Assembly (NCBI GenBank): GCA_038230075.1
Contig: JBBRNV010000003.1
Span: 29,329 to 93,328 of the forward strand
Length of the DNA stretch: 64,000 nt
Reading direction: 5' to 3'
Source: Minisyncoccia bacterium
Lineage (GTDB): Bacteria; Patescibacteriota; Minisyncoccia; Phycocordibacterales; CALRBL01
Shown: positions 4,365-57,667 of the stretch, one piece after another
Position numbering within the stretch: position 1 is the stretch's first letter
How the letters are laid out: every line of letters begins with the position of its first letter
Program-made: the position numbers and the translations under genes
The notes under the pieces: model-generated
Told to the model about the DNA's origin: nothing
The model's database searches: none
Seen by the model: only the letters and a program-made list of their open reading frames with translations

Positions 4365-5375
4365 ATGGCATTCGTCGATGAACTAACAGTTAGTATTAAA
4401 GCAGGAAACGGCGGGCACGGAGTAGTGCGATGGCTTCATGAAAAAGGAAAGGAATTCATGGGTCCAGCTGGAGGAAACGGTGGAAATGGAGGAGATGTCT
4501 TTGTAAAAGGAGTCAGTGATTTAGGAGTACTTGCTCACTATCGTCACAAAAAACTATTTAAAGCAGAACGAGGAGAAGATGGTCAATCAAAGAGTAAATA
4601 TGGTCAAAATGGAAAAGATTTAATAATTGAAATTCCTGTTGGTTCGATGGTTACAAATAATGATACTGGAAAAGTATATGACATTGCAGAAATTGGAGAA
4701 CCAGTTCTTATTTTAAAAGGAGGAAGAGGTGGTCTTGGAAATGAACATTTTAAAGGTTCAATGAATATCCGTCCAATGGAACACACCGATGGAAAGGTGG
4801 GTGAAGAAGCGATGTTTACCATTGAACTTCTTCTCGCTGCAAGTCTTGGATTAATCGGACTTCCAAACGCCGGAAAATCTTCACTCTTGAATGCGGTGAC
4901 AAATGCAGAAGCAAAAGTTGGTGATTATCAATTCACCACACTCGAACCAAACCTTGGAGCATTCCTCGATTTCATTATTGCAGATATTCCTGGACTTATT
5001 GAAGGAGCCGGACAAGGAAAAGGATTGGGTCACAAATTCTTACGTCATGTTATGCGCACAAAGATTTTGGCACATTGCGTATCGGTTGAAAATGAAGACA
5101 TGGGTGCCGCATACGATACTATTCGACATGAGATTAAATCATTTGATATTTTACACAAAGGTCTTGTTCATGGACAAATCGAAAGTAAAGATGAGATTGT
5201 TATTATGACTAAAGTAGACAGCGTTCTTCCTGAAGTACTTGAAACAAAACGAAAAGCGCTAAAGAAACATCTAAAACGTGGAGCTAAAATACTTGAAGTG
5301 TCAGTTTACGACGACGTCTCACTTGCAGCATTCAAAAAAGAACTTTTGACTATTCTTCAAAATACAGCAAAATAA
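4365..5375 (+). CDS. obg: GTPase Obg
   Basis: Gly-rich Obg fold at the N-terminus (GNGGHGVVRW, GGNGGNGGDV); G1 motif GLPNAGKSSL; G3 DIPGLIEGA. Confidence 0.9.
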   Translation: MAFVDELTVSIKAGNGGHGVVRWLHEKGKEFMGPAGGNGGNGGDVFVKGVSDLGVLAHYRHKKLFKAERGEDGQSKSKYGQNGKDLIIEIPVGSMVTNNDTGKVYDIAEIGEPVLILKGGRGGLGNEHFKGSMNIRPMEHTDGKVGEEAMFTIELLLAASLGLIGLPNAGKSSLLNAVTNAEAKVGDYQFTTLEPNLGAFLDFIIADIPGLIEGAGQGKGLGHKFLRHVMRTKILAHCVSVENEDMGAAYDTIRHEIKSFDILHKGLVHGQIESKDEIVIMTKVDSVLPEVLETKRKALKKHLKRGAKILEVSVYDDVSLAAFKKELLTILQNTAK

Positions 5376-5383
5376 GAAGGTCT

Positions 5384-6868
5384 ATGGAAAAAAAGTATAC
5401 GCCTACAATCGGACTCGAAATTCATGCAGAAATGAGCACTGTCACAAAGATGTTTTGCGGTTGCAAAAACAATCCAGACGAAGTGCGCCCTAATTTTAAT
5501 ATTTGCCCAGTATGTATGGGTCATCCAGGAACTCTTCCTGTGGTTAATAAACAAGCAGTTAAAAATGTCCTTAAGGTTGGTATTGCTCTTGGTTCAACTA
5601 TCGCCGACTTCACTGAATTTGATCGAAAAAATTATTTCTACCCCGATATTCCAAAAGGATATCAAATTAGTCAGTATAAATTTCCTTTAATTTCTGGAGG
5701 AACACTCGATGGAGTTGAGCTCACTCGAATTCATTTAGAAGAAGATACCGCTACTTCAAAACATGAAGAAGGAGATTTTAGTTTGGTTGATTACAATCGA
5801 GCCGGTGTGCCTCTTATGGAGCTCGTGACAGAGCCTGTGATTCACTCTCCTGAACAAGCTGGTGCTTTTGCTCGAGAGTTACAACTTCTTCTTCGAACAC
5901 TTGGTGTTGGAGAAGCGAATATGGAAAAAGGTGAGATGCGAGTTGAAGCAAATATTTCTGTTTCAGAATATTCTGCTGAAGAAACTGCAAAAGATCATAG
6001 TAAATTTGGTACAAAAGTTGAGGTTAAAAACTTGAATTCATTTAAAGCTGTAGAGAAAGCCATTGCTTACGAAGTTAAGCGGCATATTGCACTTATTGAA
6101 GCAGGCGAAAAGGTTGTTCAAGAAACACGAGGATGGGATGAAAACAAACAGAGTACCTTTTCACAACGAAAGAAAGAAAATTCTCATGACTATCGATATT
6201 TTCCTGATCCTGATATTCCAAAGTTCACTTTATCTGAAATTCCTGAATTTTCTCGAGATGTTCTCTCAAAAGAATTACCTGAACTTCCATGGATAAAACG
6301 CGATCGATTCATTGCTTCATTTGATTTAAAAAAAGAAGAAGCAGACGTGTTTCTTTATAACCCAATGTTAGGTTCATATTTCGAAGCGGTGGTCGTTGAA
6401 CTTAACGCCGAAAAGAAAGCTGTTCGACTTGCTGCGAATTATATTTTGTCAGATGTGGGTGCTCATTTAAAAGTACAACCTGAAATTGATCTTGCATTAA
6501 AAATTGCTCCGAAAAACTTTGCTTCGCTCATGGCACTCATTGTTACCAATAAAGTTTCATCTCGAGGAGCAAAAGATATTCTTGAAATTATGTGGAAAGG
6601 AGAGCGAGACGGTGTTGTAGCAAAAGATGCTGACGCACAAAAAATTGCTGAGCAGTTTGATTTACTACAAAAAAGTGACGAAGGAGCACTCAAAGAAGTA
6701 CTTCACAAAATTATTTCAGAAAACCCAGGGCCGGTCGCAGACTACAAGGCTGGAAAACAGCAGGCACTTATGTTTTTTGTTGGACAAGCTATGAAAGCAA
6801 CAAAAGGATCTGCCAATCCCGAACTTCTTAAAGATATTGCAATTAAAGTCATTGCTGAATTACAATAA
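5384..6868 (+). CDS. gatB: Asp/Glu-tRNA amidotransferase subunit B
   Basis: N-terminal GLEIHAEM...CGC...CPVCMGHPGTLPV motif typical of GatB; the length and C-terminal YqeY-like domain fit. Confidence 0.9.
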   Translation: MEKKYTPTIGLEIHAEMSTVTKMFCGCKNNPDEVRPNFNICPVCMGHPGTLPVVNKQAVKNVLKVGIALGSTIADFTEFDRKNYFYPDIPKGYQISQYKFPLISGGTLDGVELTRIHLEEDTATSKHEEGDFSLVDYNRAGVPLMELVTEPVIHSPEQAGAFARELQLLLRTLGVGEANMEKGEMRVEANISVSEYSAEETAKDHSKFGTKVEVKNLNSFKAVEKAIAYEVKRHIALIEAGEKVVQETRGWDENKQSTFSQRKKENSHDYRYFPDPDIPKFTLSEIPEFSRDVLSKELPELPWIKRDRFIASFDLKKEEADVFLYNPMLGSYFEAVVVELNAEKKAVRLAANYILSDVGAHLKVQPEIDLALKIAPKNFASLMALIVTNKVSSRGAKDILEIMWKGERDGVVAKDADAQKIAEQFDLLQKSDEGALKEVLHKIISENPGPVADYKAGKQQALMFFVGQAMKATKGSANPELLKDIAIKVIAELQ

Positions 6869-51098: not shown

Positions 51099-52277
51099 TT
51101 AATACCCAGTCGTGTACGAACCGTATGAGTAGGTAACTGTTAGGCCACTTTTATATGAAACAGTAGAGTCATCTTTTAATAGAAGATATACATCGTAAGT
51201 GCCTGGAGAAAGCTGGCCGATATGAAATTGAAGTGTTCCATCATCGATAACAGAAAGATCTTGGACATTGTTTTCTCCAATGATGACATCTGAAACATTT
51301 TGGAAACCAGTTCCTTTAAGAATGACATATGTTTTATTGTCGCCAGAAGCAATACTTGATGGAGTAACACTTCGAATACTTGTTGGTGTTGAAGCACCAC
51401 TTGTTCCTCCTGAAGAAGCTGGTGCAGATGGTGATGGAGCCGATGTGATTCCTCCTCCCGAAGATTGTCGAGGAGGGACTGGTGTTACCGGTGGTGGTGT
51501 TATGCTCGAATTGTTTCTTGTAGTGGTTGTAGCTCGAGGAGTACTTGTTGAAGTTGTTATTGGTTTTACAGAAATTGTTGCGTCGCTTGTAATAACAACT
51601 GGCTTTGCATCTGCATTATTATAGACATACCATTCTTTCTTCATGTCATCACCTGAAATGGGAATAACCACAATATCTTTTCCATCTTCAATGATTGCTT
51701 TAAATCCTGCCTTAACAGAAGTTTCAGTTCCTTGAATAGGTTCTCCTGTTGTAGGATCTTTTTTGTACACAAATACTTCACCTTCAGTAACATTTACTTC
51801 AGTAATGCCACCTGCAAAGTTCACGCCAAATGATGTACCACGAACAACAGCAACAGCATTTCCTGTTTTAATTTCGAAAAATTCTCCTTGTTCAGCAGAT
51901 TTTTTAGCACGTGCCCATAATTCACCACCAAGTAGTTCAATGTTATTTTTTGTCGTGTCGTCAGAGGTGCTCACTACCACCTCACTGTTGTAATCAACCA
52001 TAGTTGGATGTCCGTGAGGAGATTCAATAAGTGCTCGTCCGGTTGATGAGGTTTTAATTACAGAGTTGCTTGGAGTAGTTGTACTTGTTGGAATAGCTGT
52101 GTCGGAAGAAGCATCTTTCATTCGAAGTGAAACATTCTGTTCAACGGTCGTTACGGTAATAGGAAATGTTGCTGCAGATGTGGGCATGACTGTTTTTGTG
52201 TCCGATTGATTTTTGTATAAAAGAAAGACAGCCCCAAGAATGATAATCGCGACTATACCAAGTGAAAGTTTTTTCAT
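51099..52277 (-). CDS. FecR-domain plus IPT/TIG-domain secreted or anchored protein
   Basis: N-terminal TM helix; FecR-like beta region (AVVRGTSFGVNFAGGITEVNVTEGEVFVY); Pro/Ser/Thr linker; C-terminal IPT-like domain; 4 bp upstream of the cyclase start. Confidence 0.55.
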   Translation of the reverse strand: MKKLSLGIVAIIILGAVFLLYKNQSDTKTVMPTSAATFPITVTTVEQNVSLRMKDASSDTAIPTSTTTPSNSVIKTSSTGRALIESPHGHPTMVDYNSEVVVSTSDDTTKNNIELLGGELWARAKKSAEQGEFFEIKTGNAVAVVRGTSFGVNFAGGITEVNVTEGEVFVYKKDPTTGEPIQGTETSVKAGFKAIIEDGKDIVVIPISGDDMKKEWYVYNNADAKPVVITSDATISVKPITTSTSTPRATTTTRNNSSITPPPVTPVPPRQSSGGGITSAPSPSAPASSGGTSGASTPTSIRSVTPSSIASGDNKTYVILKGTGFQNVSDVIIGENNVQDLSVIDDGTLQFHIGQLSPGTYDVYLLLKDDSTVSYKSGLTVTYSYGSYTTGY

Positions 52278-52358
52278 TCGAATATCATAGCAAACATTAG
52301 TCTTTTGTTCGACACTCCTTCAAAGTGCGACTTTTTATGTCGTAATTTGTTATCCACA

Positions 52359-52388
52359 TTGACGAGTGAACGATTGTTCACCTATACT
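52359..52388 (+). promoter_or_regulatory. promoter TTGACG, 18 nt, TATACT with an embedded perfect palindrome GTGAAC-GATT-GTTCAC (candidate operator)
   Basis: The palindrome at 52366-52381 sits exactly between the -35 and -10 hexamers. Confidence 0.5.
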
Positions 52389-52415
52389 GTAATCATACAA
52401 AATAATTAAAAACAT

Positions 52416-52607
52416 ATGAGCGAACAACAATACAAAAACTGGATAGGAAGAGAGTTGCAGCGATTAAATGAAATAATCGATTACAACATATTACATGGGT
52501 TCAACTATCGAGAAGAATCAAAAAAACATAAAGCACTTTTAAAACAGACTGAAGTGATGCAAAAGAAAGAACAGAAAAGAAGTGTCTTCAGTTTTATGTT
52601 TAGTTAA
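52416..52607 (+). CDS. hypothetical small basic protein (63 aa)
   Basis: ORF downstream of the promoter/operator; no recognisable domain. Confidence 0.35.
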   Translation: MSEQQYKNWIGRELQRLNEIIDYNILHGFNYREESKKHKALLKQTEVMQKKEQKRSVFSFMFS

Positions 52608-52661
52608 TCTTTATACTATCTTTATTTTGTTGTTCGCCGAATTTTAATGTTTGAATCTAAA

Positions 52662-52704
52662 TAAAAAAACCGCCCGCCTCGAGTTGTGCTCGAGAGCGGG
52701 GCAG
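52662..52704 (-). terminator. GC-rich rho-independent terminator for the minus-strand gene ending at 52721
   Basis: CCGCCCGCCTCGAG-TTGTG-CTCGAGAGCGGGG hairpin; on the minus strand followed by TTTTTTT. Confidence 0.65.
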
Positions 52705-52720
52705 TTGGTTCGGTCTGCGT

Positions 52721-53020
52721 TTAGTTGCGCAACCGAATGCTTAAGGGGCCAATGTTGATGGCGGAAAGCCGTTGCGCCAACTTCTGACGCTGCTGCGGAG
52801 GAGTAGTATGGTTGAAACCACCATGAGTGGTTGGAGGGACAAACTTTTGACCTTCAGGTTGCATGATCGGATAGAGCCGACCATCTTTCAACAAGTAGGC
52901 CACATGGACCAATTTCTTGGTTGGGCGGCGCGCAGGCTGCTGAGCCTGTGCGGAAGGGGTGAAGATGACGGAGGTGAAGGCGAACACGAGGAGCGCCAAG
53001 ACGAGTTTGAGGATGTTGTT
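52721..53020 (-). CDS. hypothetical small secreted protein; GC-rich cassette
   Basis: Signal peptide (LALLVFAFTSVIFTPSAQA), GC3-rich codons; start set at the Met that begins the signal peptide. Confidence 0.5.
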   Translation of the reverse strand, partial: NNILKLVLALLVFAFTSVIFTPSAQAQQPARRPTKKLVHVAYLLKDGRLYPIMQPEGQKFVPPTTHGGFNHTTPPQQRQKLAQRLSAINIGPLSIRLRN

Positions 53021-53146
53021 CATGCTATCTAAAGCCAGGCTAACTAGCTTCACATAGCATGAACACATCGAAGAACTTTACTATCGTATTATACCATATT
53101 ACTGATAAATGTCAATTAATCAGACAACATTAAACCAGCCTTTATG

Positions 53147-53833
53147 TTAGGTTCTTTTATGACCTTTCTTCCATTCAATGAGTGATCCAGCTTTTAATTC
53201 CATGTTGTCTGCCTTTCTTAGGTATTTGATATTTTGTTGAGGAATAATTGATGTATGTGGTGATTCATCAAGTGCATCTGCTATGTGATCTAAGTTTTGT
53301 TCTGAGGTTATCCACTTTGTTCCAAACTTTTTTACATTAAAAGGTTTTGAAAAACTGCGAAGAGTTTTCTTTTTTGTTTTATTATCAAAATATTCATGAA
53401 AGTATGAAAGTGCTAATTCTCGAATTGTTTTATATACAGGATCTCTAAAACGAAGTGTTGAATGATTTGTTTTACTAATCGCTCCCCAGTATCCATTAAT
53501 TTTATAAAGTGCAACGACATGATCAACATCATCTTCTGTTTTTAAATCAAGAATGAGTGGTTCTTCTCCGTGAATCCACAAAGCTAGAGCGGCAAGAAGT
53601 GCACCTTCAAAACAATGCGCTTTTTCTTCCTTTAACACTCTTCGTGGTGACATATAGGTGTCACCTTTCTTTTCCCAATTAACAGGAAGGGAATCGAGAA
53701 AGTCTTGTATTTTAATAGGTGTTGAAAGTGCCTTAAGCTTTTTTAATTCGTGTGATGAAAGTCCAAACATTAATAAAGTATAACAAAACCAAAGAGAGAT
53801 GTTCTGGTATTCATTCCATTCATGCGGTACCAT
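53147..53833 (-). CDS. hypothetical protein with a papain-fold Cys-His-Asp arrangement (transglutaminase-like or arylamine-N-acetyltransferase-like)
   Basis: AHCFEGALLAALAL (Cys74) then DHVVALY (His105) then RFRDP (Asp131); the spacing is compatible with a TGase-like or NAT catalytic triad; this is motif-level evidence only. Confidence 0.45.
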   Translation of the reverse strand: MVPHEWNEYQNISLWFCYTLLMFGLSSHELKKLKALSTPIKIQDFLDSLPVNWEKKGDTYMSPRRVLKEEKAHCFEGALLAALALWIHGEEPLILDLKTEDDVDHVVALYKINGYWGAISKTNHSTLRFRDPVYKTIRELALSYFHEYFDNKTKKKTLRSFSKPFNVKKFGTKWITSEQNLDHIADALDESPHTSIIPQQNIKYLRKADNMELKAGSLIEWKKGHKRT

Positions 53834-53841
53834 AATGCTCT

Positions 53842-54243
53842 ATGCGAAAAAGTAAGTACACTCCTGGAGACTACAAAGTTGTTGTTAAGCGTTCATCTGC
53901 AGGTCTTGGTTTATTTGCTTCTGAAGAAATTCCAAAAGGAAAGTGTGTCATCGAATATGTGGGAAGAGTAATTAAAGGAAAAGAAGAATATACCAGCAAT
54001 AGTAAATACTTATTTGAGGTTCACTCTCGAAAAACTATTGATGGAAGAGATCGCTCAAATATAGCTCGATATATTAATCATTCATGCAAAGCAAATGCTG
54101 AACCGACTATTCATAAAGCACGAGTATTTATTATGTCTAAAAGGAAGATACTTGCTGGAGAAGAGATTGTGTATGACTATGGTGAAGATTATTGGGGTGA
54201 ACACATACAACCAAAAGGATGCAGGTGTAGAAAGTGCTCATAG
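53842..54243 (+). CDS. minimal SET-domain protein lysine methyltransferase
   Basis: GLGLFA (GxG), RYINHSCKANAE (NHSCxxN), EEIVYDYGEDYW (ELxxDY) and post-SET CRCRKC. Confidence 0.8.
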   Translation: MRKSKYTPGDYKVVVKRSSAGLGLFASEEIPKGKCVIEYVGRVIKGKEEYTSNSKYLFEVHSRKTIDGRDRSNIARYINHSCKANAEPTIHKARVFIMSKRKILAGEEIVYDYGEDYWGEHIQPKGCRCRKCS

Positions 54244-54823
54244 CACCACGTTTCGTTGACTTTCTTTGTAAAGATTGTACTGTATTTTAAGAATGAAAAC
54301 TATTTCTGGTTGGAGGCCGACATTGTTGGCAGAAAGGTTGTTAGAAGAGCGTGAGAATCGCGGTGGGTTTATACAAAAAAGGTAGTTGAGAAGACAAAAA
54401 TCAAAAAGGTCTGGGGAAAAAATGCAAAAAAAAGACCGAAAGCTCGTCCCGGATTTCACCTGACCAGCAAACCCAAAGAACTTGCTCGACATTTTGTTGG
54501 AAACCGATTTCTGACTGCTTTGAAAGGAAAGTTGTTTCGAGATCCTTCCAACTTCTATTACTTTATGTGGAATGCTGTGCACGTGCACATTTTACACATG
54601 AGCGAAGAGGGGTTGGTGGATGTTCTTGAAAAGTTCTCTTCGAACGATCCTTCTTTTCCGCGAAGTATGACCGCAGAACGGCTGCTTCGTGGTAATCTCA
54701 CTAACAGCTTTTACCAAAAGGGACAAGTTGTTACATATGTAGATTCGGTGATTGCAATCATCGTTGCTGCCGTCTATGATTTTGTTTTTCCTCCCACACT
54801 TTCTGTTGCTCAAAAACAAGGCA

Positions 54824-54857
54824 ACAAAAAGAAAAAGAAAAAGAAAAAGAAAAAAAA
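54824..54857 (+). repeat. (AAAAAG)n microsatellite
   Basis: aaaaagaaaaagaaaaagaaaaagaaaaaaaa read directly. Confidence 0.8.
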
Positions 54858-55027
54858 TTTCGCGCTACAATCTCACTCCAACCACTGACCTCGCCTTAAA
54901 CCGGCGAGTTTTGTGTTTTATAAAACAAAGCTCCGCGTATCAATATATAAAAAGGAAAACCGCTCGCCGAAGGTGAGCTCATTGAGCGGGTCCTTGGGGA
55001 GCGATTTGTGTACCGAATGTTCGAAGA

Positions 55028-55759
55028 CTAGCCGCCAGGAGTGTAGATCGGCATCTCCTTAAACTTGAGACGACGAATCAGGTCGGTGAGGATGAGTCGA
55101 ACCACTTGGTCTCGATTCATATCAGTATTGTCGATTTCCATCGAACAAGGATGCCTCACGAATGGTGAAACCGATCTTTCGGTATCGTGCCTGTCGCGCT
55201 TCTGGAGCCCTTGTACGATCTCTGCGTACGTTTGTTCGGGCTGATCTTTCGGCTGATCCTTAAAGCGGCGAGCTGCTCTCGTGGCGACCTCGGCGGTGAT
55301 GAAGTAGCCGCTGCACCGACCGTTTTCGGCGTCGAAGATTTTTCTCATGTCCCGACCTTCGGGCACGAGACCAGGCAGTTGCCTGCGGGACATCTGATAG
55401 TCGTGCATCATCGCACGTACTTCTGGTATTGCGCTGACAGCGGAAACCCGATCCGAGCAAGCCTTGTAGCGAATTTCTTCGGTGACTTCGATTTCACCGA
55501 CGAAAACCTTCCCATCGACGAACGTTGTCGGATACTGAAGTGCGACTTCGATCACATTGTTCGGATTGGTGATGTCGATACCGTGGACGATGGTGAGGTG
55601 TGCCACCGACCGGTAGAGAGCGCCGCTGTCGAGGTGTTTGAAGCCGAGAATTCGAGCAAGCTCACGAGCGGTCGAACTTTTGCCGGATCCGCCAGGACCA
55701 TCGATGGCGATAACTTCTGCGAGTAGATTAGGAGGTGTTAGTTGAGTGAGGGTGGCCAT
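55028..55759 (-). CDS. cmk: cytidylate kinase; GC-rich gene
   Basis: IAIDGPGGSGKSSTARELARILGFKHLDSGALYR matches the Cmk P-loop/NMP-binding signature; GC3-rich codons, about 55% GC. Confidence 0.8.
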   Translation of the reverse strand: MATLTQLTPPNLLAEVIAIDGPGGSGKSSTARELARILGFKHLDSGALYRSVAHLTIVHGIDITNPNNVIEVALQYPTTFVDGKVFVGEIEVTEEIRYKACSDRVSAVSAIPEVRAMMHDYQMSRRQLPGLVPEGRDMRKIFDAENGRCSGYFITAEVATRAARRFKDQPKDQPEQTYAEIVQGLQKRDRHDTERSVSPFVRHPCSMEIDNTDMNRDQVVRLILTDLIRRLKFKEMPIYTPGG

Positions 55760-55902
55760 TCGGCCTCCTTTCTTTTTCGAGGGGTGAAACTGTGGGTGAG
55801 GTTCGTCTTCGAAACACATGTATGAGTCAAAGAAGAGCTTTCAATAGAGTAGTGGTTTAGAGCATTAAAGTCAAACCATATATTACAACAAAGAGAATAA
55901 CT

Positions 55903-56072
55903 TAATCGGTACTAATTTTATATCCGAGCCAGATACCAGCAAGTCCTCCAACAGCAGTTAATATTACTGATGAGAGTGAAAAGAAGCTGTCACCCCAGAG
56001 TTCAGGAATGAATCCTCCGATAGTTGATCCGATAAACAAGAAGAGAAAAATAATTTGTTTTGATGCCATATA
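55903..56072 (-). CDS. small hydrophobic protein (55 aa), absent from the ORF track because it is under 60 aa
   Basis: ATG at 56072 directly abuts the stop of the AI-2E gene; translation is MASKQIIFLFLFIGSTIGGFIPELWGDSFFSLSSVILTAVGGLAGIWLGYKISTD, i.e. two predicted TM helices. Confidence 0.4.
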
Positions 56073-57098
56073 TTATGAGACCTTCTTTTCTTTAAAGAAG
56101 TCGTATATTTCTGTTGCAACAATTTGGACAACTGCTGCCGCTGGAATCGCAAGAAGGATTCCGGTTATTCCTCCAATTTCTCCTCCAATAATTGAAGCGA
56201 CAACAATCAAAAGTGCAGATAGGTCGATTGAATGTGAATACACTGCTGGTTGAATAAAATGTCCTTCTACAAATTGATACACCAATAGAACGACAACACT
56301 AATGACCACTGCAAAAATTCCTTGTGTAAGTGCAACCAATCCTACGATAATTGTTGCGATAGCTGCCCCAACAAGAGGAATAAGGTCGAAGAGCGCAACA
56401 AGTACCGCTAATGCAAATTTGTAAGGAACACCAAGAATCCACAATGTGATGAGCGTGACAAGGCCGGCAATGAGGCTAATAAAAAGATTTCCAGACACGA
56501 AACCACTGACTGAGCGTTGAATACGTGAACCAACTCGTTCGGCAATTGATGCGTCTTTTTCTTTCAAAAAACTGAGAAATCCTTTCCAAATATACAACCC
56601 TTCGATTTGAAGAAGAAAGGTCAGAACAATAACCGAGGTAATACCAACAAGTTTTGAAATCACATTATTGGTGATAACAATCAGTGATGTTCCTCCTCCA
56701 AGAAGTAAAACCGAAATTTCATTCGAGAATTCTTTTAACGTATCAGCAAAATGAAACTTTTGATTAAGTGAAACAAAACTTGGATTATTCAACATTCGGT
56801 TGGTAATTTCAGGAAGATGTTGGAAGAGGTCCATTCCTTGGTTAATGAGGGGAATTGCAATCGTTCCTAGAAGTCCAAGAACAATAATAAGGAGGAAGAT
56901 ATCTGCAATAACTGCCGCCCACACTTTTGATGCTCCCCATTTTTCAAGCTTGGTGACAACGGGATTGATAGCGAATACCAGTAGTGTTGCAACAACAAGG
57001 TATAAAATTACAAGATTCGATAAAACAATAAAGTAAAGTATTGCAGTGAAGGCCACAATAATAGTACAAATGAGTAATGTTTTTTTAGCTGTTTCCAT
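56073..57098 (-). CDS. AI-2E family transporter (PerM/UPF0118)
   Basis: Eight TM helices; overall AI-2E family topology and family resemblance. Confidence 0.7.
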   Translation of the reverse strand: METAKKTLLICTIIVAFTAILYFIVLSNLVILYLVVATLLVFAINPVVTKLEKWGASKVWAAVIADIFLLIIVLGLLGTIAIPLINQGMDLFQHLPEITNRMLNNPSFVSLNQKFHFADTLKEFSNEISVLLLGGGTSLIVITNNVISKLVGITSVIVLTFLLQIEGLYIWKGFLSFLKEKDASIAERVGSRIQRSVSGFVSGNLFISLIAGLVTLITLWILGVPYKFALAVLVALFDLIPLVGAAIATIIVGLVALTQGIFAVVISVVVLLVYQFVEGHFIQPAVYSHSIDLSALLIVVASIIGGEIGGITGILLAIPAAAVVQIVATEIYDFFKEKKVS

Positions 57099-57139: not shown

Positions 57140-57667
57140 ATGATCGATCGAAAAAAGCTTGTCGTTGTGAATGACCATATGCAAAAAGGATATACATATG
57201 AATTAACTGAACCAGAGGGAAAAAATTTTGATCCTGAATTTAAGCCAGACCTCACACCAAAACAAATGCTTGAACTCGGGGTGTTTGGAGGAATATACAT
57301 GAGAGATTGTGCTAATGAGTTTCCAAAATCATGGTTTGCTAAAGCTAAGTTTGTTCCCGTTGAAAGCAGTATCAAAGATCTCAAACTTAACTACTTTGGG
57401 GTCGATGCAAGTCAATCACTTGAGGTGTGGAAAAAGAATGGATGGATCAACGAGAAATATGATCCGCGAGGTTGGTTTCAGTGGTATTGCCGATATTATG
57501 TAGGAAGAAGAATTCCAGATGAAGATCGACGACAGATTAAACGTTGGAAAGCAATTAATAGGCATATTGCACAAGTAATTCACAATTGTAGACCTCAAGA
57601 TTTTTCATGTAGAACGAAGCAGCGACAAGCTATTTTGCACTGGGCCTATGATAGTCGAAAGCTATAG
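57140..57667 (+). CDS. hypothetical conserved soluble protein (unidentified DUF)
   Basis: 175-aa ORF rich in Trp/Tyr (GWFQWYCRYYVGRR); no motif I can assign. Confidence 0.45.
   Translation: MIDRKKLVVVNDHMQKGYTYELTEPEGKNFDPEFKPDLTPKQMLELGVFGGIYMRDCANEFPKSWFAKAKFVPVESSIKDLKLNYFGVDASQSLEVWKKNGWINEKYDPRGWFQWYCRYYVGRRIPDEDRRQIKRWKAINRHIAQVIHNCRPQDFSCRTKQRQAILHWAYDSRKL

Follow-up and report, generated by a model that had tools for sequence, protein, structure and literature searches.

We analyzed a 64,000-nucleotide stretch of DNA (hereafter the window) from a Minisyncoccia bacterium (contig JBBRNV010000003.1 of assembly GCA_038230075.1, positions 29,329 to 93,328) and focused on a gene at 53842..54243 that encodes a 133-residue SET-domain protein. 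The protein has an intact SET core and post-SET motif, it belongs to a large and slowly evolving family, and its gene lies back to back with a gene for a CPR-C4 family cysteine protease. We think it probable that the protein is an active cytoplasmic lysine methyltransferase that depends on S-adenosylmethionine (SAM) and acts on an endogenous protein, and that its target may be linked to CPR-C4 or be a nucleoid-type protein.

The SET domain and its motifs

The open reading frame (ORF) at 53842..54243 on the forward strand begins with ATG, comprises 133 codons, and ends with a TAG stop codon at 54241-54243. SET relatives share the start M-[KR]-K-x-K-[YF]-x-P, and because they begin at the same position, the ATG at 53842 is the supported start. 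The product matched the Pfam SET profile (PF00856) over its full length (E = 4.6e-22; 78.9 bits against a cut-off of 22.4; profile positions 1-105 of 105), with the match spanning residues 21-114 of the protein. The first-pass annotation, made by a model from the letters of the DNA, had called the gene a minimal SET-domain lysine methyltransferase of 133 residues with four SET signatures in order, and both statements agree with what we found. In the translation, GLGLFA (residues 21-26) is followed by RYINHSCKANAE (residues 76-87), EEIVYDYGEDYW (residues 107-118), and CRCRKC (residues 127-132), a set of motifs that is far beyond chance. The gene and its motifs are as follows.

53842..54243, forward: gene for a SET-domain protein, a predicted protein-lysine methyltransferase, 133 residues plus stop codon (ORF, Pfam, PDB matches, and AlphaFold2 model)
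53896..53919, forward: motif I, SAGLGLFA (residues 19-26), the GxG SAM-binding turn; aligns with GLGLYA of KMT2D
54064..54105, forward: ARYINHSCKANAEP (residues 75-88), the NHSC pseudoknot and SAM-binding motif; aligns with ARYINHSCAPN of KMT2D
54157..54201, forward: GEEIVYDYGEDYWGE (residues 106-120), with Y111 at the presumed switch position and Y113 as the catalytic tyrosine; aligns with GEELTYDY of KMT2D and KMT2C
54217..54240, forward: post-SET GCRCRKCS (residues 126-133), C127-x-C129-x-x-C132; conserved cysteines

A phmmer search of PDB sequences returned the SET domains of KMT2D, KMT2C, and MLL1 as the best matches (E ~1e-15), followed by EHMT1/2 (E ~1e-13) and then by SETD2 and NSD2. 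We also built an AlphaFold2 model on 21 relatives, which was of moderate confidence (predicted local distance difference test [pLDDT] 72.4; predicted template-modelling score [pTM] 0.67), with residues 51-55 and 68-76, around the short SET-I insert, below a pLDDT of 50. The model matched the SET structures of G9a/GLP and MLL1/MLL3 (E ~1e-8; template-modelling [TM] score 0.6-0.72; probability 1.00; identity 31-38%) and thus showed the SET beta-fold. The KMT2 (MLL/Trithorax) and EHMT (G9a/GLP) enzymes were therefore the best matches by both sequence and structure, and they share with the window protein the order of motifs, the YDY catalytic segment, and a cysteine-rich post-SET region. The window protein differs from them in being only 133 residues long, in lacking the pre-SET, N-SET, and Win segments and the partner-binding regions, in its very short, low-confidence SET-I insert, and in its bacterial context without nucleosomes.

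To follow conservation residue by residue, we aligned the window protein with 20 relatives at 65-74% identity. Residues G21, L22, G23, L24, E38, Y39, G41, Y56, N79, H80, S81, C82, N85, Y111, D112, Y113, G114, C127, and C129 were invariant, and C132 was at least 90% conserved; the tyrosines and the NHS/Cys residues that the first-pass annotation had singled out (Y111, Y113, N79, H80, S81, and C82) are thus all retained. The SAM-binding GxG (GLGLFA) and the pseudoknot motif (RYINHSCKAN) are both present and aligned to KMT2D, and EEIVYDY aligned with EELTYDY of KMT2D in the HMMER alignment. We considered whether the protein might instead be catalytically dead, a structural SET-like protein such as a methyl-lysine or peptide binder. 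The confidence of the model and its poorly predicted segments would allow for this; however, the GxG, the NHSC, the YDY tyrosines, and the post-SET cysteines are all present and invariant across the family, and we regard a dead protein as highly improbable.

SET and post-SET elements fully occupy the 133 residues, leaving no accessory domain. In the mechanism that we propose, this bare SET core with its short post-SET motif would transfer a methyl group from SAM to a protein lysine. According to the Phe/Tyr-switch rule, the degree of methylation is governed by the residue that lies two places ahead of the catalytic tyrosine (DIM-5 F281, MLL1 Y3942). In the window protein Y111 is presumably this position, and because it is a tyrosine, as in MLL1, the rule predicts mono- or di-methylation rather than tri-methylation. 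From the conserved cysteines, C82 of NHSC and the C127-x-C129-x-x-C132 cluster, we infer a post-SET zinc site in which C127, C129, and C132 would be ligands and C82 the fourth; this site would close the lysine channel.

Family size, conservation, and characterized counterparts

We next looked at how widespread the SET protein is. A word-indexed search of 5.8 billion proteins (E ≤1e-3) recovered at least 3,630 homologs. The top 120 were 126-171 residues long and 66-76% identical to the query and, where named, were annotated as "SET domain-containing protein" of Candidatus Parcubacteria, Paceibacterota, or Taylorbacteria. The identical protein was recorded both in an NCBI contig of 95.5 kb and in an independent Logan assembly. 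Among contigs of one genome per GTDB species, identity was 66-76% in Parcubacteria, Paceibacterota, and Vogelbacteria, 50-55% in Saccharibacteria and a few other bins, and ~27-38% in Verrucomicrobiae, several Chlamydiales families, one further Saccharibacteria bin, and Methanothrix. Many of the metagenome contigs with SET loci at 44-65% identity had a G+C (GC) content of 60-70%, so the small SET plus post-SET family reaches beyond the low-GC genomes of the candidate phyla radiation (CPR). An exhaustive HMMER scan of 1.84 billion representatives of 50%-identity clusters gave 7,796 hits at E ≤1e-3, 585 at 1e-10, and 23 at 1e-30; the strong conservation of the close family means that its members fall into few clusters. 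It is thus a very large, slowly evolving family of SET proteins of ~133-170 residues, centered on Paceibacteria/Parcubacteria, with more distant relatives in Saccharibacteria and non-CPR bacteria. The first-pass annotation had called SET proteins rare in bacteria, which is not true of this lineage, and a 2014 review had already counted SET genes in >500 bacterial genomes; its guess of a reduced-genome organism was right, the gene coming from one of the CPR/Patescibacteria.

For comparisons of gene context, we assembled 119 loci (24 from genomes, 80 from metagenomes, and 15 from an exact-protein look-up; numbered with the prefix L), on which SET and CPR-C4 were placed by tblastn. In matched pairs of loci, SET was among the slowest-evolving genes, about as slow as neighboring ABC ATPases. 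Between L106 and L113, identities were 84% for SET, 79% for CPR-C4, 89% for an ABC ATPase, 67% for an AI-2E transporter, and 69% for a GNAT protein; between L026 and L003, they were 69% for SET, 66% for CPR-C4, 53% for VanY, and 80% for ABC-F. The SET and CPR-C4 genes of the window have a GC content of 0.35-0.36, which falls inside the range found for most of the DNA around them (0.33-0.40), and so show no sign of recent acquisition.

Ten longer SET relatives were mostly tandem SET-SET proteins (the group P0241, P0260, P0299, P0313, P0352, P0305, and P0377, exceptions included). The exceptions were P0305, in which the SET domain is interrupted by a GIY-YIG nuclease domain, and P0377, in which ClpX-N/AAA is combined with SET, probably through a chimeric gene call. 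None of the ten carried a substrate or targeting domain fused to SET. The tandem arrangement hints, by analogy, that the single-domain form may act as a dimer. The chlorovirus protein vSET forms a dimer. Its minimal size is similar to that of the window protein, and the best viral structural match was M1IDW8 (116 residues; TM 0.76 over the target; E = 2.9e-8), which is unnamed in the tables that we used and which we take to be vSET-like. We know of no post-SET motif in vSET. M1IDW8 is 27% identical to the window SET, below the 31-38% of the KMT2/G9a SET domains at a similar E-value; this identity and the C-x-C-x-x-C post-SET motif exclude vSET as the closest relative and leave it as an analog in size.

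Nearly all characterized bacterial SET proteins are host-directed (Table 1 of PMC3980110), and the first-pass annotation had accordingly put forward a candidate effector. The window protein would then be exported to methylate host histones or chromatin, like NUE of Chlamydia, RomA/LegAS4 of Legionella, BtSET of Burkholderia, and BaSET of Bacillus. Such a role would suit a CPR bacterium with a reduced genome and a probable dependence on a host; moreover, the closest solved structures are those of eukaryotic histone methyltransferases, and the LegAS4 model was matched weakly and in part. We found no positive evidence for export, however. By inspection, we recognized no secretion signal in the N-terminus MRKSKYTPGDYKVVVKRSS, which leads directly into the SET core (the Pfam match begins at residue 21); the sole hydrophobic N-terminal stretch is the conserved GLGLFA strand. 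The protein lacks an N-terminal extension and any ankyrin, nuclear localization signal, or other targeting module, and no secretion-system genes were present in the neighborhood of the window gene or in 12 related neighborhoods. RomA/LegAS4 and BtSET do have homologous SET cores (PDB 5CZY; E = 1.3e-8), but they are effectors of >400 residues with ankyrin repeats and Dot/Icm delivery; the NCBIfam AnkI/LegAS4 model (NF043024) matched the window protein in the SET core only, with 46 bits against a cut-off of 550, so at the equivalog level the protein is not a member of this Legionella effector family.

The chlamydial proteins cpnSET (C. pneumoniae) and NUE (C. trachomatis) resemble the window protein in being small bacterial SET proteins in reduced genomes, and SET proteins of Parachlamydiales, Waddliaceae, and Rhabdochlamydiaceae are ~27-36% identical to it. 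NUE, however, carries a signal for type III secretion and modifies host histones (PMC3980110), whereas we saw neither a signal nor a secretion system for the window SET. In addition, most CPR partners are bacteria or archaea, which lack tailed histones (PMC9108980), and the conservation of the family is housekeeping-like. In one relative (L118), the SET gene overlaps the end of trmD in an rpsP-KH-trmD-SET-PDDEXK_1-rpoB-rpoC array without CPR-C4, a cluster of ribosomal and RNA-polymerase genes. We therefore consider a secreted effector unlikely; the slow evolution, the lack of any sign of export, and the array in L118 favor an internal, constitutive role, in which the target would be one of the bacterium's own proteins and not a host histone. 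L114, too, has a PDDEXK_1 nuclease-fold gene right after SET (SET at 5001..5414; that of L118 lies at 5001..5432).

There is precedent for such endogenous targets among prokaryotic SET proteins, as cpnSET is reported to methylate the endogenous histone-like protein Hc1 and the stand-alone Go1-SET of Methanosarcina mazei the endogenous chromatin protein MC1-alpha (PMC3980110). The latter is the mode that we propose here, although Go1-SET is archaeal and is likened to the window protein by description only; the sole archaeal relative that we recovered, from Methanothrix (L025), was 30% identical. Bacterial SET proteins are usually discussed as host-directed, and a slowly evolving family that is thousands strong in Patescibacteria argues that lysine methylation by SET proteins also has a routine internal function in bacteria with tiny genomes.

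The CPR-C4 gene, the shared spacer, and candidate promoters

The gene directly upstream of SET is divergent from it and, when searched alone, gave only a sub-threshold hit to a Pfam transglutaminase-like family. A profile of 21 homologs retrieved PDB entries 7OB6, 7OB7, and 7PJO, annotated as "CPR-C4," with an E-value of 1.5e-74, and an AlphaFold2 model of the protein (pLDDT 87.8) matched 7OB6 at a TM score of 0.83 and 53% identity, followed by human VASH1/2 (E ~1e-6). The neighbor thus belongs to the CPR-C4 protease family. At least 7,688 homologs were found, nearly all of 207-208 residues and unnamed, with a range that includes Paceibacterota, Nomurabacteria, Magasanikbacteria, and Gracilibacteria. 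The coordinates of the gene, of the spacer that it shares with SET, and of the promoter-like elements within it are listed below.

53147..53833, reverse: CPR-C4 family cysteine protease (vasohibin-like), ORF of 228 residues (profile and AlphaFold2 match to 7OB6)
53771..53841, between the genes: divergent SET/CPR-C4 intergenic spacer, 71 bp if CPR-C4 starts at M22 (comparison with related loci)
53828..53836, forward: -10-like element TACCATAAT, ending 5-8 nt before the SET ATG (in register with related loci)
53777..53782, reverse: -10-like element TATACT, 6 nt before the proposed CPR-C4 start (in register with related loci)

CPR-C4 has been described as a highly conserved CPR cysteine protease with a vasohibin-like Cys-His-Leu(carbonyl) triad, C61/H93/L115 (Cornish et al., PMC9108980). 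In the window protein the triad is C53/H84/L106 (207-residue numbering, from M22), and across an alignment of 21 sequences C53 and H84 were invariant, while position 106 was usually Leu, with Val or Ile in a few sequences. The window protein therefore resembles the crystallized CPR-C4 in sequence, fold, and triad. The published enzyme cleaves casein in vitro, and the authors inferred an acidic substrate from a positively charged pocket and obtained no functional clue from gene context (PMC9108980).

The 228-residue ORF probably starts too early. Its first 21 codons (53771..53833, reverse) lacked a counterpart in 15 of 20 aligned homologs, and the true start is probably M22 at 53770, giving 207 residues, rather than the ATG at 53833; both the alignment of the 207-208-residue family and the -10-like box just upstream of M22 point to it. 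With this start the divergent spacer is 71 bp, compared with 42-57 bp in L003, L005, L106, L108, L113, and L114 and ~45 bp in most loci.

By comparing the spacers of related loci, we recognized -10-like boxes on both sides, 6-10 nt from the start codons, in ~10 loci. On the SET side, at least eight related loci have a TATAAT, TAGGAT, or TAGAAT box that ends 8-10 nt upstream of the ATG; on the CPR-C4 side, TAAAAT, TACTAT, or TAGAAT ends ~6 nt before the ATG. No Shine-Dalgarno motif precedes either SET or CPR-C4. Among the 56 ORFs of at least 150 residues in the window, 7 had a Shine-Dalgarno-like motif, and 28 had a TAnnnT box ending 5-11 nt before the start, for which we roughly estimate a chance rate of ~0.19 per gene. 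Leaderless mRNAs may thus be the rule in this organism, and the SET and CPR-C4 transcripts are likely leaderless, arising from overlapping back-to-back promoters, as judged from the sequence of the spacer.

The first-pass annotation had suggested looking for co-transcription with neighboring genes. Upstream lies the divergent CPR-C4; downstream, ~780 bp (54244..55027) without a supported gene are followed by a convergent cytidylate kinase gene (cmk), so SET looks monocistronic in the window. In our model, a compact back-to-back promoter region would serve both SET and CPR-C4 and give rise to a leaderless mRNA that carries SET alone. A structured RNA or cis element around SET was rejected, as an Rfam search of 52200..56200 returned only hits at chance level by E-value; the whole window contained two tRNA-Thr genes and nothing else of this kind.

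Pairing of the two genes, candidate targets, and other genes of the window

The pairing of SET with CPR-C4, the most informative feature of the neighborhood, had gone unremarked in the first-pass annotation. It depended on how closely the SET proteins are related.

SET identity of at least 65%: CPR-C4 adjacent in 12 of 15 loci
SET identity of 58-65%: CPR-C4 adjacent in 3 of 11 loci (with enough upstream DNA)
SET identity below 58%: CPR-C4 adjacent in 0 of 62 loci

Pairwise SET identity among the pair-carrying loci was 55-93% (median 66%), and an unbiased clustering of ORFs within 3 kb of SET also returned CPR-C4 as the most recurrent neighbor. The outer flanks varied. Beyond CPR-C4 we found VanY, an AI-2E transporter, DUF4230, IGPS, or hypothetical genes, and beyond SET a SWIB-domain gene, FtsJ, a cation ATPase, or PDDEXK_1, with the non-coding gap in the window. 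In L036 and L039, SET and CPR-C4 were co-directional and still adjacent. VanY was common to L002, L003, L005, and L112, and this partial wider synteny shows that the adjacency is in part inherited; the variation in flanks and orientation argues that selection also keeps SET and CPR-C4 together. The AI-2E transporter adjoins CPR-C4 in L106 and L113 but was rejected as a third partner, since the window copy (56073..57098) is not a close homolog (no tblastn hit).

A general linkage of the two genes across the CPR was ruled out: at three CPR-C4 genes, from Magasanikbacteria, Gracilibacteria, and another Parcubacteria lineage, there was no SET gene within 4 kb. Because CPR-C4 occurs elsewhere without SET, the pairing marks one Paceibacteria clade and its SET subfamily. 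The published CPR-C4 comes from a thermophilic CPR contig with flanking ABC-transporter genes, whereas the window gene and those of 11 further loci are paired with SET. We found no mention of this neighborhood in the CPR-C4 paper (PMC9108980) or elsewhere in the full-text library that we searched, and the same library returned no paper on a SET domain in Patescibacteria/Parcubacteria; the family and its gene context thus appear to be undescribed, though the genes are auto-annotated as "SET domain-containing protein." The conserved divergent arrangement suggests co-regulation, and the pairing may reflect a shared substrate or pathway.

We weighed this against the idea that SET is an endogenous housekeeping methyltransferase without any link to its neighbors, acting on a translation or transcription target such as a ribosomal protein, an elongation factor, or an RNA-polymerase-associated factor, with the adjacency left over from synteny and a shared compact promoter. 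Yeast Rkm1-4 are eukaryotic SET enzymes that methylate ribosomal proteins and provide a precedent. The slow evolution of SET, its overlap with trmD between rpsP and rpoBC in L118, the occurrence of CPR-C4 without SET, and the inherited adjacency shown by the VanY synteny are all compatible with this idea. Nevertheless, the pair is kept while both outer flanks and the relative orientation change; by our rough reasoning, chance would place two given genes side by side in far fewer than 1% of genomes with ~1,000 genes, and nothing indicates a specific ribosomal target. We therefore regard an unlinked housekeeping role as a possibility to be taken seriously, if not a likely one.

A second recurrent neighbor suggested what an endogenous target linked to CPR-C4 or to the nucleoid might be. 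A gene for a SWIB-domain protein (PF02201) of 76-84 residues, 81-92% identical among loci, lies ~70-145 bp downstream of SET in L003, L106/L107, L112, and L113, overlaps the end of SET in L119, and lies 0.9-4 kb downstream in L026, L028, and L005, making 8 of the 15 close loci in total. DEAD-box helicase and cold-shock-domain genes often follow SWIB in these loci. (In L113, the gene caller gave a spurious 112-residue antisense ORF instead of SWIB.) The SET-SWIB adjacency parallels the SWIB-SET co-occurrence remarked in Chlamydiae, in which a small SWIB protein binds along the whole length of the chromosome (PMC6426960). Of the chromatin or nucleoid modifier that the first-pass annotation had offered as an alternative to an effector, the nucleoid part is still plausible, and the SWIB genes lend it weak support. 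The leading candidate target would be the SWIB protein encoded downstream of SET in many relatives, or another nucleic-acid-associated protein.

A more ambitious proposal, which we hold to be rather doubtful, is that SET, CPR-C4, and SWIB constitute a conserved endogenous protein-modification module in one Paceibacteria clade. A lysine "writer" and a site-specific processing protease would then be co-regulated from one back-to-back leaderless promoter and would share a small nucleic-acid-associated substrate, either SWIB or a neighboring cold-shock or DEAD-box partner. If true, the module would be a bacterial counterpart or antecedent of three families that are tied to chromatin or cytoskeleton regulation in eukaryotes, and it would provide the first physiological context for CPR-C4. 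The pairing and the frequent presence of SWIB offer a short list of candidate substrates or partners for CPR-C4 and join an orphan methyltransferase and an orphan protease in a testable pair.

Several observations weigh against our preferred explanation of an endogenous methyltransferase with a target linked to CPR-C4 or the nucleoid. The acidic substrate proposed for CPR-C4 (PMC9108980) does not obviously fit a basic, lysine-rich target. Three close loci (L004/L118, L027, and L119) have no adjacent CPR-C4. Since CPR-C4 has a much wider distribution than SET, the pairing could also reflect synteny that was inherited in a single clade. No SWIB gene is present anywhere in the 64-kb window, and a degraded copy in the gap at 54244..55027 was ruled out by tblastn (E up to 50) and by tblastx against all loci. 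Lastly, the -10-like boxes lie in AT-rich DNA and were not called by a scan of 53000..55100 for consensus sigma-70 promoters and terminators, which found no promoter in the spacer and no terminator right after SET.

We also noted further features of the window. The gap at 54244..55027 showed no similarity to any related locus; it contains an ORF of 122 residues at 54520..54888 on the forward strand, without a Pfam hit, that ends in a run of lysine codons, (AAG/AAA)n, and is directly followed by a terminator-like hairpin at 54890..54908. The Logan assembly of the SET locus ends near 54854, inside this lysine-codon repeat. The cytidylate kinase gene beyond the gap (55028..55819, reverse; Pfam E = 1.6e-48) has a GC content of 0.52-0.55, compared with ~0.35-0.38 on both sides, and this ~1-kb GC island suggests recent horizontal acquisition. 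On the other side of CPR-C4, 49160..52277 on the reverse strand encodes a CHASE2 plus nucleotidyl-cyclase protein of 644 residues and then a FecR-domain protein of 392 residues with a long Ser/Thr/Pro-rich low-complexity region; a gene for an Nramp transporter adjoins the two. Three ORFs, of 175, 63, and 115 residues, at 57140..57667 (forward) and 52416..53068, were without a Pfam match; the 115-residue ORF has a signal-peptide-like N-terminus and a locally higher GC content (0.45).

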